Notes: generated by a model not told the origin, from the sequence alone. Counted from the first letter of the stretch, positions 35,218 to 64,000 are shown. The stretch is 64,000 bases of DNA from Pseudomonadota bacterium (GCA_009924135.1 RFSE01000011.1:921-64920), one strand, 5' to 3'. A program made the numbers and translations.

Positions 35218-36006
35218 CTACTCCTCCGCGTGCACTCCAGCAGAATGGCTGCACACGCCCCGCTTGGTGGTGGCCACAAAATCGAGCAGTTGCCGGGCTG
35301 CGGCACCGGTGACGGTCGCCTCCGCTTCGGCCAGCGCGTCCCGGCGCAGTTTGCCACTGAGGAAGAGCAGATGGTAAAGGCGCTTGAGCTCCGTGCGCTG
35401 CTCCGCAGCGAAACCGCTCCGCCGCAGGCCGATGGTGTTCAAGCCACAGATCATGTTGATCCCCGTGGCGATGCAGAAAGGCGGCACGTCCTTGCTCACC
35501 GCCGCGCCGCCTTGCAGCAACGCCAGCGGACCAACGCGGCAGAACTGATGCACCAGTGAGTTCGCCGAGAGGAACGCACGCTCGCCGATCACCGCGAAGC
35601 CGGCGATGGCAATGCCGTTGCAGAGAATCGCGTAATCCTTCACCTGCACGTCGTGGCCGATGTGCGCATTGCCCATGATAAAGCAGTGCGAGCCGATGGT
35701 CGTGGCGGTGTCTTCCTTCGTGGAGCAATGGATGGTGGCGTGCTCGCGGATGATGTTGTCATCGCCGATGACCAGGCGCGTCGGTTCGCCCTTGTACTTC
35801 ACATCCTGCGGCGTGTCGCCCACCACGGCTCCGGCGTGGATGCGGTTCCGCGCCCCGAGAGTCGTATGGCCGGTGAGATGCACAAACGGGCCGACGACAC
35901 AGCCGGGGCCCAGCGTGACGTGCCCCTCAATCACGGCGTAGGGACCGACCTGCACGTCGGAGGCGAGCTGGGCGGTGGGGGCGATGAGGGCGGTAGGGTG
36001 GATCAC
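35218..36006 (-). CDS. lpxA: acyl-ACP:UDP-N-acetylglucosamine O-acyltransferase
   Basis: GTG start. IHPTALIAPTAQLASDVQVGPYAVIEGHVTLG hexapeptide repeats, plus GDTPQDVKYKGEPTRLVIGDDNIIREHATIH. Confidence 0.9.
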   Translation of the reverse strand: MIHPTALIAPTAQLASDVQVGPYAVIEGHVTLGPGCVVGPFVHLTGHTTLGARNRIHAGAVVGDTPQDVKYKGEPTRLVIGDDNIIREHATIHCSTKEDTATTIGSHCFIMGNAHIGHDVQVKDYAILCNGIAIAGFAVIGERAFLSANSLVHQFCRVGPLALLQGGAAVSKDVPPFCIATGINMICGLNTIGLRRSGFAAEQRTELKRLYHLLFLSGKLRRDALAEAEATVTGAAARQLLDFVATTKRGVCSHSAGVHAEE

Positions 36007-36015
36007 GGGGGGAAA

Positions 36016-36120
36016 GTGTTCAGTAATCAGTGTTCAGTTTTCAGTCATCGCAGACGCCGACAGCCGTCGGAGTGGACTCAAAACTGAAAACTGAAAACTG
36101 AAAACTGAAAACTGAAAACT
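36016..36120. repeat. inverted heptamer arrays flanking a 34-bp core (radC-lpxA spacer)
   Basis: Left array gtgttca gtaatca gtgttca gttttca (36016-36043). Core catcgcagacgccgacagccgtcggagtggactc, with ccgac-agcc-gtcgg. Right array aaaactg x5 plus a partial copy (36080-36120), the inverted counterpart of the left array and abutting the radC stop codon. Confidence 0.9.
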
Positions 36121-36827
36121 CACACATAGAAAAGTCCCAGCTCCCGCAATGACACAAAATCCCTCGGCCGCTCGGTCGTCCGATGGCCGATGATCACATG
36201 GTCGGCAACCTCGATCTTGAGCAACCGCCCGGCGCGGATCAGGTCGCGGGTGATCCGGATGTCTTCTTCGCTGGGCGTGGGATCACCGCTGGGGTGGTTG
36301 TGGACCAGCACGATCGAGGAGGCATTCGCGAGGATGGCGTGCTTGAACACGTCGCGCGCGTGGACATGGACGGAATCGAGCGTCCCGTGCGAAAGGTGCT
36401 CCATGCGAATGAGCCGGAGGCGGGTGTTAAGGAGCAACACAATCAAATGCTCCACCTCGTAACCACGGGCCTCTTCGCGCACGAGGCTGGCGATAAGTTC
36501 GGGCGAATTCAGCAACGGGGATTCGGCGCGGATCTCGGCAGCCATGCGCCGTGCCAGCGTGAATGCGGCCTGCAACGTCACGGCCTTGTCGCGCCCGATG
36601 CCTTTCACTTCGCAAAGCTCCTTCACGGAGGCCTGCGAAAGCCGGTCCAGCGTCTGAAACTTCGCGAGTAATTCCTGCCCGATCACCAAGGCGGATTTAC
36701 CCTGCAAGCCGGTGCGCAGGAGAATCGCGATGAGTTCCGAATTGCCGAGCGCATCCGCGCCGCCGGCGGCGAGCCGCTCGCGCGGCCGCTCGTTCGCGGG
36801 GATGTCCTTGATGCGGACGCTGCTCAT
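36120..36827 (-). CDS. radC: RadC-family JAB/MPN domain protein
   Basis: Trimmed to ATG 36827 (MSSVRIKDIPANERPRERL). Contains a helix-hairpin-helix (LCEVKGIGRDKA) and HNHPSGDPTPSEED. Confidence 0.9.
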   Translation of the reverse strand: MSSVRIKDIPANERPRERLAAGGADALGNSELIAILLRTGLQGKSALVIGQELLAKFQTLDRLSQASVKELCEVKGIGRDKAVTLQAAFTLARRMAAEIRAESPLLNSPELIASLVREEARGYEVEHLIVLLLNTRLRLIRMEHLSHGTLDSVHVHARDVFKHAILANASSIVLVHNHPSGDPTPSEEDIRITRDLIRAGRLLKIEVADHVIIGHRTTERPRDFVSLRELGLFYV

Positions 36828-36863
36828 GGCTGGCTTGCACCGAAAAGCGACCGTCGGTGAATT

Positions 36864-36888
36864 CCCTCTCCCCCATTGGGGGAGAGGG
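36864..36888. repeat. perfect 11-bp stem hairpin (ccctctccccc att gggggagaggg) between hflX and radC
   Basis: Exact palindrome read directly from the sequence. No U-run follows on the minus-strand transcript, so it is not called a terminator. Confidence 0.8.
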
Positions 36889-36948
36889 AGAGGAAATCCC
36901 CAAAGTTCGAAGCGGCACACAGGCCGACGAAGACTGGCCGCTGAGGAC

Positions 36949-38232
36949 TCATAGTTCCTTCACGACAAACGCGGCAAACTCCGCGTGCAGGTGCGGCGGG
37001 ATGCGGGCCTTGAACAGCGCGTTCTCCCCGCTGTAATCGCGTTCGACGATTTGCGCCACCTCATGCAGCTTGGCCATGACTCCGGCTTCCGTGTGCGGAA
37101 TGGCCAGTTCGACAAAATTGCGCACGGGCCGCAGCGCGGTGCCCAGCTCGCTCATCAAACCCGTGAAACCTTCGCCGGTGCGGGCCGACACCGCAACGGC
37201 GCGCGGATGTGCCATCAGCCAACGGGCCACCAAGTCCGGCGGCGCGTGATCAATCTTGTTCAACACCAGCATCGTCGGCTTGTCCCCGGCGTGGATTTCC
37301 TCGAGTACATCGTTGACGGCGCGGATGTGGTCCTCGGCCTGCGGGTGCGTGCAGTCCACCACATGCAGGAGCAGGTCCGCTTCGACCACTTCTTCCAACG
37401 TGGCCTTGAAAGCCTCGACGAGGCGGTGCGGCAACTTGCGGATGAAACCCACGGTGTCGGACAACAGCACGTTCTGGTTCGTCGGCAGGCGCAGGCGGCG
37501 CGTCGTGGGGTCCAGCGTGGCGAAGAGCTTGTCTTCGGCGAGCACGGCGGCTCCGGTGAGCTTGTTGAAGAGCGTGGACTTGCCGGCGTTCGTGTAACCG
37601 ACAATCGAGGCGAGCGGCCATTGGTTCCGCTGACGGCCCGCGCGTTGCGTGGCGCGCTGGCGGCGGACGATGTCGAGTTCCTCATCCAGCTTCTCGATGC
37701 GCTCGGAGATTTTGCGGCGATCGGCTTCGAGCTGGGATTCGCCTTCGCCGCCGATGGCGCCCATGCCGCCGCGCTGACGGGAAAGGTGCGTCCAGTAGCG
37801 CGTGAGCCGCGGGAGCAGGTACTGAAGCTGCGCCAACTCGACCTGCAGCTTGCCTTCGCGGGTGCGGGCGCGCTGCGCGAAGATGTCGAGAATCAGCGCG
37901 GTGCGGTCCATCACCGTGCCCTCGAAGACCTTCTCCAGGTTGCGCGTCTGCGCGGGCGACAGCTCGTCGTCGAAGATGATGGTGTCCACCTTCTGTTCGC
38001 GGCAGTGCGCGGCGAACTCCTGGGCCTTGCCGGTGCCGATGAACGTGGCGGGATGGATGTTCTCCAGCTTCTGGATGCCTTCGCCCACGATGTTCGAGCC
38101 GGCGGTGCGCGCCAGCTCGGTCAACTCGGCCATCGAGTCGGCCGTGGTCCACGGGGTGCCGGATTTTAATTCCACGCCGACGAGGAAGACGCGTTCGGCC
38201 TTGTGGTGGGGGTCTGCGATGAGTGCTTTCAA
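36949..38232 (-). CDS. hflX: GTPase HflX
   Basis: HflX N-domain (FDDELSPAQTRNLE, DRTALILDIFAQRARTREGKLQVELAQL). G motifs GYTNAGKSTLFN, DTVGFI, NKID. Confidence 0.95.
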   Translation of the reverse strand: MKALIADPHHKAERVFLVGVELKSGTPWTTADSMAELTELARTAGSNIVGEGIQKLENIHPATFIGTGKAQEFAAHCREQKVDTIIFDDELSPAQTRNLEKVFEGTVMDRTALILDIFAQRARTREGKLQVELAQLQYLLPRLTRYWTHLSRQRGGMGAIGGEGESQLEADRRKISERIEKLDEELDIVRRQRATQRAGRQRNQWPLASIVGYTNAGKSTLFNKLTGAAVLAEDKLFATLDPTTRRLRLPTNQNVLLSDTVGFIRKLPHRLVEAFKATLEEVVEADLLLHVVDCTHPQAEDHIRAVNDVLEEIHAGDKPTMLVLNKIDHAPPDLVARWLMAHPRAVAVSARTGEGFTGLMSELGTALRPVRNFVELAIPHTEAGVMAKLHEVAQIVERDYSGENALFKARIPPHLHAEFAAFVVKEL

Positions 38233-63047: not shown

Positions 63048-64000
63048 TTGAGATTTAGTCCAAAGTCCAAAGTCCAAAGTCCAAAATCGCAGCCTGCCGG
63101 GCGCGCACTGGCCACACGCAGCGCAGCTTCCGCCATTCCGCATTCCGCATTCCGCATTCCACCTTCCCTCGTCCCTGCCCTGCTCGGTTGGTTCGCCGCC
63201 GCCGCACGCGACCTGCCCTGGCGACGCACGCTGGACCCCTACGCCATCTGGATCAGCGAGATCATGCTGCAACAGACGCAGGTGAAGACCGTCATCCCGT
63301 ACTGGGAACGCTGGCTGCGTGAATTGCCGGACGCCGCCGCCCTCGCCGCCGCGCCGGAGCAACGCGTGCTCAAGCTCTGGGAAGGCCTGGGCTATTACAC
63401 GCGCGCCCGCAATTTGCAGAAGGCCGCGCAGCAGGTCGTGAGCACTCACGGAGGCCGCTTCCCGCACGCGTTTGACGCCATTTTGGAATTGCCCGGCGTG
63501 GGCCGCTACACGGCCGGCGCGATTGCCAGCATCGCCTTGAACCAGCCCGCACCCATCGTGGACGGGAACGTCATCCGCGTGCTCACCCGCCTCTTTGCCA
63601 TCGGGGAAAATCCGCGCGACAAGGCGACGAACGAACAGCTCTGGCACCTCGCCACGCAACTGGTGCAGGCCGCCGCTCGAATTACGAATTACGAATTACG
63701 CATCGCGGGGCTGGTCGTTTCCGGAGCGTGTTCGGCGCTGAACCAGTCGCTCATGGAGTTGGGCGCGACGGTCTGCACGCCGCAAAGCCCGCAGTGCCTG
63801 CTGTGCCCGGTACGCCCCCATTGCGCCGCGCACCGGGAGGGCCGCGTCGGCGAACTGCCAAACCTCGGGCCGCGCACCGCGACCACGAGCCGGGAGTTTC
63901 ATGCCTTCGTTGTGAACTGTGACGGAAAGTTGCCTGTGACACAAAGGCCCAGCGGCGGAGTGAATGCGGGCTTGTGGGAGTTTCCGAACGTGGAAGTCAC
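63048..64000 (+). CDS. mutY: A/G-specific adenine DNA glycosylase MutY (3' end outside the window; start unresolved)
   Basis: Own translation; not in the ORF track because there is no stop in the window. From 63180: LLGWFAAAARDLPWRRTLDPYAIWISEIMLQQTQVKTVIPYWERW...GLGYYTRARNL...LPGVGRYTAGAIASIA...VDGNVIRVL...NQSLMELGATVCTPQSPQCLLCPVRPHC (HhH-GPD plus 4Fe-4S Cys cluster). There is no in-frame ATG upstream. Candidate starts are TTG 63048, GTG 63015 and TTG 63012. Confidence 0.85.
   Translation, partial: MRFSPKSKVQSPKSQPAGRALATRSAASAIPHSAFRIPPSLVPALLGWFAAAARDLPWRRTLDPYAIWISEIMLQQTQVKTVIPYWERWLRELPDAAALAAAPEQRVLKLWEGLGYYTRARNLQKAAQQVVSTHGGRFPHAFDAILELPGVGRYTAGAIASIALNQPAPIVDGNVIRVLTRLFAIGENPRDKATNEQLWHLATQLVQAAARITNYELRIAGLVVSGACSALNQSLMELGATVCTPQSPQCLLCPVRPHCAAHREGRVGELPNLGPRTATTSREFHAFVVNCDGKLPVTQRPSGGVNAGLWEFPNVEV
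63057..63084. repeat. perfect heptamer array AGTCCAA x4
   Basis: agtccaa agtccaa agtccaa agtccaa, read directly. Confidence 0.95.
63134..63161. repeat. heptamer array CATTCCG x3 + CATTCCA
   Basis: cattccg cattccg cattccg cattcca, read directly. Ends 18 nt before the first conserved MutY codon. Confidence 0.95.
63678..63698. repeat. perfect heptamer array CGAATTA x3 inside the mutY CDS
   Basis: cgaatta cgaatta cgaatta (21 bp, in frame) encodes RITNYEL. It lies within a segment that is about 18 aa longer than the corresponding E. coli MutY loop before the NQ..M.LGA motif (comparison from memory). Confidence 0.9.

Follow-up and report, generated by a model that had tools for sequence, protein, structure and literature searches.

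To our knowledge, the origins of heptanucleotide repeats and of rRNA intervening sequences (IVS) have been unexplained since about 1990. The cyanobacterial STRR that Mazel et al. reportedly described in 1990 are intergenic tandem heptamers, with several unit families per genome. [quoted passage not shown] The TAACTGA repeats found upstream of start codons in Beggiatoaceae, cyanobacteria and Bacteroidetes are single direct arrays with one exact unit, and only one case in 170 is inverted (MacGregor 2015, PMC4679880). The IVS of Coxiella is an S23p ORF enclosed in a 28-bp inverted-repeat stem, which is cut mid-stem by RNase III (Warrier et al. 2016, PMC4990558).

The junction between radC and lpxA of a Pseudomonadota bacterium was compared with these systems. 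It is located in a window of 64,000 nt (GCA_009924135.1 RFSE01000011.1:921-64920; the genome is referred to as G000) and both genes are encoded on the minus strand. The upstream gene, radC, codes for a RadC-like JAB protein and was called as an ORF at 36120..36920 (Pfam RadC, 1.8e-39; UPF0758_N, 1.3e-26). Its true start is probably near 36827, since the tblastn alignments of orthologues begin only at residues 25-33, i.e. at about residue 30. The downstream gene, lpxA, codes for UDP-N-acetylglucosamine O-acyltransferase and occupies 35218..36006 (Pfam Hexapep, 5e-27; Acetyltransf_11, 2e-20); its GTG at 36004-36006 is the most upstream start in frame. As the first-pass annotation had claimed, the gap between the two genes is filled by two reverse-complementary heptamer arrays, which span 36015-36120 according to both reading and TRF.

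On the plus strand, the array at 36015-36045 reads AGTGTTC AGTAATC AGTGTTC AGTTTTC AGT (TRF: 4.4 imperfect copies of AGTGTTC, 79% matches) and the array at 36076-36120 reads ACTCAAA, five times ACTGAAA and ACT (TRF: 6.4 copies of ACTGAAA, 97% matches, score 83). An inverted-repeat search identified the two as inverted arms of 31 nt that are 87% complementary. In the mRNA, the radC stop is followed by the nearly perfect 5′ arm (GUUUUCA)6 (36076..36120; 6.4 copies), a unique, GC-rich loop (36046..36075), the 3′ arm ACUGAAA ACUGAAC ACUGAUU ACUGAAC ACU (36015..36045), the C-rich leader UUCCCCCC, which has no Shine-Dalgarno (SD) sequence, and the lpxA GUG (leader and start together at 36004..36014). 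The same perfect (GUUUUCA) array is also present in the related genome G001. The 5′ arm begins at the last base of the radC TGA codon (36120-36122), so the array abuts the stop, as had been noticed before, with an overlap of 1 nt, and the distance of 9 nt given for the other array and the lpxA start agrees with the 8-9 nt found here, which are spanned by TTCCCCCC. The core between the arrays had been put at 34 bp and said to contain a small palindrome; the palindrome was recovered (CCGAC-AGCC-GTCGG at 36057-36070, with arms of 5 bp) and is the inner stem of the minimum free energy fold, but the core itself measures 30 nt. No ORF was present in this loop, either in the sequence or in the ORF list. 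Folding agreed with the long periodic hairpin that had been proposed. The sense (minus) strand folded at -47.1 kcal/mol (z = -5.7) and the other strand at -45.7 kcal/mol (z = -5.2), and for both strands 0/200 shuffles were as good.

Consensus scans of 35800-37100 revealed no sigma-70-like promoter and 0 sites with the GC-rich stem and U-tract of an intrinsic terminator; the hairpin stem is followed by UUUCCCCCC, not by a U-tract. With Rfam at E <= 1 only chance-level matches to miRNAs and snoRNAs were obtained, far below the gathering scores. The scan also confirmed the earlier observation that there is neither a sigma-70-like promoter nor an SD sequence between radC and lpxA. The absence of an SD sequence is not special: it is normal, because SD-like motifs upstream of starts are at background frequency genome-wide (10-11% vs 12% in random 16-mers). 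Reliable starts in this genome have a G-poor leader with C at -1 (0.52) and -2 (0.43), and the UUUCCCCCC-GUG of lpxA fits this pattern. Because no promoter, U-tract or Rfam match was found and SD-less starts are the norm in this genome, the terminator role once suggested for the hairpin is unlikely. Transcription that starts upstream most likely continues to serve lpxA, just as it does in relatives in which the two genes abut.

To place the hairpin in its genomic context, the whole assembly (6.68 Mb, 490 contigs, 62.8% GC) was surveyed. Perfect arrays of at least 3 copies numbered 192 at period 7, 52 at period 6, 29 at period 5 and 3 at period 8. A pairing script that joined inverted TRF heptamer arrays within 150 nt of each other yielded 109 paired heptamer hairpins, which belong to dozens of unit families (GGTCGAG, AGTGTTC/AGTTTTC, AGTCCAA, AAGGCAA, GGTTCAA, CCAAGCT, GGGAATA and others). 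In almost all of them the loop is GC-rich and unique; the exception is a six-copy AAGGCAA subfamily that forms the centre of a larger nested palindromic repeat. The median arm is 31 nt, the median loop 25 nt and the median element 86 nt, and 63% of the arms have 4.0-4.9 copies. Since element lengths are broadly distributed (interquartile range 78-97, 95th percentile 129 bp), the shared length of 105 bp with the unit at 63057-63161 is a coincidence, as the first-pass annotation had itself allowed.

No family with more than one member departed from a single arm polarity (0:15, 0:11, 0:11, 10:0, 9:0 etc.). Among the motifs that recur periodically, AGT was found in 76 5′ arms vs 0 for ACT and AGG in 60 vs 0 for CCT, while GGT was periodic in 41 5′ arms and its complement in 0; the G:C ratio of 5′ arms was about 2:1. 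Such strict polarity is as expected of terminal inverted repeats that are read by polar machinery. Based on a crude codon-usage caller, which makes start distances and the in-ORF count approximate, co-directional genes flank 41 elements, convergent genes 11 and divergent genes 10, and 44 are located within called ORFs, some of them in frame. Between co-directional genes the 5′ arm typically lies 0-15 nt past the stop and the element often ends a few nt before the next start; therefore, a spacer made up entirely of such an element is the usual case and does not set radC-lpxA apart. Unpaired arrays showed the same geometry, with the 5′-arm strand after stops in a ratio of 54:13 and its complement before starts in a ratio of 54:9. 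The host junctions include nuoJ-nuoK and a livG/livF-like ABC ATPase pair, whose genes must be co-transcribed. The radC-lpxA spacer is an ORF-less copy of this widespread and fast-changing repeat class and not an lpxA-specific device or signal, a point that had escaped the earlier reading.

The paired repeats described by Rehm (2015) in Xanthomonas (GGGAATC) and Nostoc (GGGGA(C/T)T) resemble this class in their period of 7, their convergent arrays of about 4 units and the inward direction of the G-richer strand. They also occur between co-directional ORFs, at most 50 bp after the stop and in antisense just upstream of the next ORF, and, likewise, related species do not have them at the same genes. 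The radC-lpxA hairpin has the same features, with period 7, arms of 4.4 and 6.4 units at a distance of 30 nt and contact with the radC stop. Two differences were found. The units AGTGTTC and ACTGAAA are without any run of at least two G, so that the quadruplexes proposed as the reason for the existence of the Xanthomonas and Nostoc repeats are impossible here, and this genome contains dozens of unit families vs one. The TAACTGA repeats are similar in that the 3′ arm, (NNACTGA)n, ends a few nt before an SD-less start and in that the arrays have stop codons in all frames; they differ in that the units here (ACTGAAA/ACTGAAC/ACTGATT) are variable and the array has an inverted partner. STRR differ in lineage and units, and a regular inverted pair with about 4.4 units per arm is not among their defining features. 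Terminal inverted repeats are shared with MITEs, but near-identical copies that include the interior are missing, all loops being unique save those of one six-copy composite family.

REP/BIME elements (REPIN) are short extragenic palindromes that are dispersed in hundreds of copies, often at most 15 nt from stop codons and inside operons. They are regarded as selfish and occasionally contribute to mRNA stability or translation. Within one genome, REPs are alike in sequence, are tagged by GTAG or CGTC and are accompanied by a cognate RAYT gene. In contrast, the heptamer copies have nothing in common but the unit type; each has its own loop and flanks, and there is no common tagged palindrome. 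A RAYT/REPIN model was rejected, as the genome has a single PF01797 (Y1_Tnp) gene and TRF detected no tandem repeat in its 3.2-kb locus. Mobilization by a bracketed gene family was rejected as well: the genes between neighbouring hairpins are ordinary and unrelated. Neither the Y1 gene locus nor the genes between neighbouring hairpins provided a mobilising enzyme near the heptamer elements. Integron attC sites and V(D)J-type heptamers were dropped because the GTTRRRY core does not fit and the flanks are core housekeeping genes, not cassettes.

A further parallel concerned 23S IVS with S23p, as found in Coxiella burnetii and Leptospira (PMC4990558). Both have a terminal inverted-repeat stem of ~28-31 bp around a loop, both are selfish-looking inserts tolerated by the host, and in this genus the same AGTTTTC...ACTGAAA arms enclose S23p. 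The radC-lpxA copy differs in its loop, which is 30 nt long and has no S23p (PF05635) ORF, and in its position in an mRNA junction instead of helix 25 or 45 of 23S rRNA. The S23p genes themselves were analyzed together with their flanks. G000 has 16 matches to PF05635, of which 14 exceed the cut-off, and ~11-13 of these 14 genes are bracketed by inverted heptamer arrays. In the control, arrays on both sides were present at 14 of 968 genes of 100-200 aa (1.4%). Whole cassettes occupy gene junctions in the order stop, 5′ arm, ORF, 3′ arm, start; examples in G000 are metK-ahcY, a livG/livF-like pair and the junction upstream of cysD. Among 11 other genomes of the genus, arrays flanked the S23p gene on both sides at 23/27 loci and on a single side at 3.

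The association was also found at larger phylogenetic distance. A related-locus search with a 3-sequence S23p alignment provided 71 loci that had sufficient flanking sequence. They represent more than 10 phyla, among them Acidobacteriota, Planctomycetota, Bacteroidota, Chloroflexota, Nitrospirota, Armatimonadota, Spirochaetes and proteobacteria. Period-7 arrays were present on both sides at 48 of the 71 loci, and in 47 of the 48 they were inverted complements. Arms most commonly had a length of 4-5 units, and the array density beside the S23p ORF, estimated from counts at the 71 loci, was ~26-fold that of the outer flanks. Arms of the AGTTTTC...ACTGAAA type are linked to S23p genes. The metK-ahcY cassettes of G006 and of the basal G003 consist of AGTTTTC x4-5 ... 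ACTGAAA x4-5, which is the radC-lpxA unit. Since the orthologous cassette in G000 has AGGTTTC/GGGTTCA arms, the comparison shows that both arms of a cassette drift together in place. No S23p remnant was detected in the ORF-less loops, where blastx matched only the array-encoded part of one ORF.

To reconstruct the history of the insert, the junction was followed through related genomes. An lpxA orthologue was found in 41/41 of them, and radC-lpxA synteny holds across the genus and part of the order. In 17 members of the genus the spacer is 74-113 nt long, has AGTNNTC ... ACTGANN arms and contains no ORF in any of the 17. The orthologous arms have 2-6 units, with variants such as AGTATTC, AGTAATT, AGTGATT and AGTTTTC, and the loops are unrelated except among close kin. 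Copy number across relatives had been raised as a comparison worth making, and the spacer indeed varies in 7-nt steps. In one of the 17 genomes, G013, the hairpin is visibly decayed. Stem strength is not kept in G017, G018, G001 and G004 either, with z-scores of -0.1 to -1.5. In all orthologues the stem ends, on its 3′ side, 0-10 nt upstream of the lpxA start, and the last unit with the leader, ACTGAACACTT(T/C)(C/A)(C/G), is the best conserved part among the 17. The 5′ arm is located 10-25 nt past the stop in many orthologues.

The insert is absent from G003, where the radC-lpxA spacer is 1 nt, and two genomes from other families of the order have spacers of 0 and 8 nt. Among the remaining families, one has a different heptamer hairpin with AATACCC units and two have a TCCGTG-type repeat. 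In a tree of radC and lpxA, G003 forms the basal branch of the genus. Because G003 is basal and lacks the insert while the other 17 genus members have it, a single gain after the G003 split would be the simplest history. There is no convincing target-site duplication at radC-lpxA.

Other junctions turn over quickly. At nuoJ-nuoK the genes overlap by ATGA in 8 genomes of the genus, and a hairpin of 91-136 nt, built from at least five different units, is present in 7 others. ATGA is found on both sides of these inserts (ATGAAC in G000 and G016), which is suggestive of a target-site duplication but could equally be due to selection for two intact genes. At the livG/livF-like junction, three genomes carry arms of the AGTNNTC type and a fourth carries arms of the CCAAGCT type. 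When ten further junctions were compared in five genomes, 4/30 orthologous sites shared the G000 unit family and 5/30 were empty, with spacers of 4-7 nt; the rest contained other families or repeats. Similarity between left and right junctions at C335 and C102 was too weak to count as target-site duplication. Against this rapid turnover, the radC-lpxA insert is unusually persistent among the junctions compared. Its persistence could reflect an acquired function. It could also be the result of a ratchet: the 3′ arm now supplies the leader of the essential lpxA gene, and clean excision is prevented by the lack of flanking direct repeats.

The class membership of the radC-lpxA hairpin, its insertion polarity and its phylogenetic pattern are direct observations, as are the link of such arms to S23p genes and the lack of promoter and terminator signals. 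They are best accommodated by a reading that we consider reasonably probable: the spacer would be an ORF-less miniature insertion element, palindromic and heptamer-armed, that is a relative of the IVS cassettes, is co-transcribed and is perhaps cut by RNase III. Elements of this family consist of two terminal inverted arms of ~31 nt, each with ~4.4 copies of a 7-nt unit and with the G-rich AGT/AGG strand always running 5′->3′ toward the centre. Between the arms there is a loop that is short and unique or else a cargo gene, in most cases S23p, and ORF-less copies may have been derived from cargo-bearing ones. One such element would have entered the tight radC-lpxA junction after the basal species had split off, and would later have been altered by slippage in 7-nt steps and by changes that both arms underwent in concert. 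The hairpin is presumably transcribed within a radC-lpxA mRNA and is unlikely to act as a terminator. Its RNA stem may be melted by ribosomes or, by analogy with 23S IVS, cut by RNase III, the gene for which (rnc) is present in G000. Translation of lpxA would then rely on the leader that the 3′ arm provides, which is poor in G, rich in C and SD-less. The insert would be tolerated because the stem folds away or is cut and the G-poor 3′ arm serves as a leader, and it would have no dedicated regulatory role. Less in keeping with this reading, the loops of ORF-less copies contain no S23p remnant and are mostly unique, so that copy-and-paste from a living master is hypothetical.

Several other explanations were weighed against the insertion-element reading. 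The first-pass annotation had suggested a processing site or a translational coupler, and from the sequence either is possible. In its full form this explanation holds that the hairpin was co-opted as a post-transcriptional module, i.e. as a site for RNase III or other processing or as a coupler that sets the radC:lpxA ratio; as a coupler, the stem would be opened at its base by a ribosome that terminates at the end of radC, and this would free the lpxA start, 0-8 nt from the 3′ base of the stem. Retention of the hairpin in 17/17 non-basal members of the genus, while other junctions turn over, would agree with this, as would the constant proximity of the stem base to the lpxA start (0-10 nt) together with the good conservation of that junction, the contact between the radC stop and the 5′ arm in G000, and the fact that RNase III does cleave IVS stems of equal size (PMC4990558). 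However, neither stem strength (lost in four genomes and decayed in G013) nor the geometry between stop and stem has been maintained. Species with a spacer of 0-8 nt manage without the element, and retention is explicable by the ratchet, as imprecise deletion would damage the essential lpxA. Mismatches in the hairpins of the genome gave no support for selection on RNA pairing either: on the sense strand of co-directional intergenic copies G-U was not enriched (A-C 41 vs G-U 29), and inside ORFs the counts, which are confounded by coding constraints, were A-C 61 vs G-U 17. We therefore regard co-option as possible but rather unlikely. An origin in place, by 7-nt slippage and template switching across a small palindrome and with no insertion, mobility or relation to S23p, appears improbable. 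It would account well for the 7-nt steps between orthologues, for the near-perfect (GTTTTCA)6 arm of G000 and G001, which looks like a recent expansion, for the concerted unit change in both arms of an orthologous cassette and for the unique loops, and polymerase slippage has been put forward as the cause of an excess of heptanucleotides (Mrazek et al. 2007, as cited in PMC4679880). Yet the empty sites, with 0-8 nt or an ATGA overlap, offer no seed palindrome, while filled sites have a loop and both arms. Slippage alone predicts neither the strict arm polarity nor the modal 4.4 copies, and it does not explain why the same unit families recur at numerous loci and next to the S23p genes of different phyla.

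The remaining two explanations concern the DNA duplex and transcription termination. The element could be a structural or protein-binding site at the DNA level (a cruciform, a G-quadruplex or an array for a nucleoid protein), and the equally good hairpin on both strands, the lack of a wobble-pair bias that would mark the RNA strand and the strict polarity, which is a property of the duplex, are all in line with this; G4 formation has been shown for the Xanthomonas and Nostoc units (PMC4692102). The units AGTGTTC/ACTGAAA have no G-tracts and cannot form a G4, it is unlikely that dozens of different unit sequences would be recognised by a single DNA-binding protein, and the S23p paralogues are the sole candidates for such a protein. 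On balance a DNA-level site is very improbable. An intrinsic terminator or attenuator for radC, with lpxA transcribed from a promoter of its own, deserves hardly any credence. The long, stable hairpin does start at a stop codon, elements hug stop codons genome-wide and 11 of them lie between convergent genes, but UUUCCCCCC takes the place of the U-tract after the stem, the scans found no terminator- or promoter-like site and there is no room for a promoter. In addition, loops are not conserved, relatives without the insert have abutting radC and lpxA genes, and the same class occurs within operons (at nuoJ-nuoK and at a junction of ABC ATPase subunit genes) as well as in frame within ORFs.

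A broader and distinctly tentative proposal, to which we assign a low probability, is that the heptamer arms might be recognition arrays for S23p/Avd-like four-helix-bundle proteins encoded in the larger elements, with ORF-less hairpins as non-autonomous riders. Three findings point in this direction. Each arm has five conserved cores at 7-nt spacing, e.g. (AGT N4)4 AGT, and there are signs of fivefold assembly in S23p: the two solved relatives, PDB entries 2gsc and 2rld, match S23p and contain five chains each, and the S23p of X. campestris (XCC0516) is described as a homopentamer (PMC4990558). Further, each S23p paralogue of the genome lies between arms of its own unit type. If the proposal is true, it would link heptanucleotide repeats (STRR, Xanthomonas), 23S IVS and the large S23p family. 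The association of arms with S23p in the genome, in the genus and in more than 10 phyla gives in any case a testable handle on the origins of heptanucleotide repeats and rRNA IVS.

The radC-lpxA hairpin itself is one more copy of the repeat class described in Xanthomonas and cyanobacteria, and it should not be annotated as a terminator or as a regulator of lpxA. As its units are not G-rich, quadruplex formation is not the common denominator of paired heptamer repeats. The locus provides a dated case, absent in the basal species, present in 17 descendants and changing in 7-nt steps, and it illustrates how inserts enter the tight junctions of operons with essential genes and are then hard to lose. 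Cargo other than S23p was also observed: the AGTATTC-armed element at C181:893-1690 contains a different pair of small ORFs, and a Cys_rich_CPCC domain is present in one of the two.

The nuoJ-nuoK junction was polymorphic within the genus when loci L031-L047 were compared. Eight genomes carried an ATGA stop/start overlap at this junction, and seven carried a heptamer hairpin of 91-136 nt, flanked at both ends by ATGA(AC). The hairpins of these seven genomes were built from at least five different units. In G000, the genome that holds the window, the nuoJ-nuoK hairpin was located outside the window (contig C488:16585-16661).

The spacer between radC and lpxA was also occupied by different repeats in related genomes. 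A heptamer hairpin with AATACCC units was present in the spacer of genome G023 (L022), and the spacers of G037 (L023) and G027 (L028), which represent two other families of the order, contained a CACGGA/TCCGTG-motif repeat without a heptamer hairpin. From the presence of these repeats it follows that the radC-lpxA junction was colonised independently by different repeat kinds.

Some heptamer arms enclosed genes. G000 encoded 14 S23p genes (23S rRNA intervening-sequence protein, PF05635), ∼11-13 of which were enclosed by inverted heptamer arms, and the arm unit type differed from one S23p gene to the next. These cassettes were wedged into junctions of housekeeping genes such as metK-ahcY; part of the set was located at C450:3656-4095, C45:14928-15387, C460:4403-4874, C107:2646-3182 and C115:3417-4034. 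A further element, whose AGTATTC arms enclosed two small ORFs in a cargo 737 nt long, was situated between two ordinary genes (C181:893-1690). One of its ORFs had a Cys_rich_CPCC domain (PF14206) and the second had no Pfam match. Six AAGGCAA-armed hairpins (C336:9668, C447:43400, C80:2649, C53:8193, C169:41297 and C277:57) had their loops and ∼60 nt of flank on each side in common, the shared flank sequence being CTCCCTCTCCC...GGGGTGAGGGGTTGGAAG / ACCTCACCCC...GGGAGAAGG, and a larger dispersed repeat of nested palindromic structure had these hairpins as its core. The single Y1 transposase-like gene (PF01797) of the G000 assembly (C138:4113-7352, L098) was surrounded by GC-rich dispersed repeats, with a translation reading ...AAVSRSERDQPQHRQ..., and no heptamers were found around it at this locus.

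Across the whole G000 genome, translation starts showed no Shine-Dalgarno enrichment (∼10% vs. 12% background). The leaders preceding them were G-poor, with C at 0.52 at position -1 and 0.43 at -2. For hairpins inside called ORFs, sense-strand arm mismatches were 61 A-C vs. 17 G-U genome-wide, a strong asymmetry that may be due to coding or GC3 constraints, or may reflect selection against mRNA structure.

The longest radC ORF (266 aa), which starts with GTG at window position 36920 (window 36920-36949), is probably over-extended. The alignment of radC orthologues begins only at residue 25-33, and this suggests a start near 36827, which would give a hflX-radC spacer of ∼120 nt.
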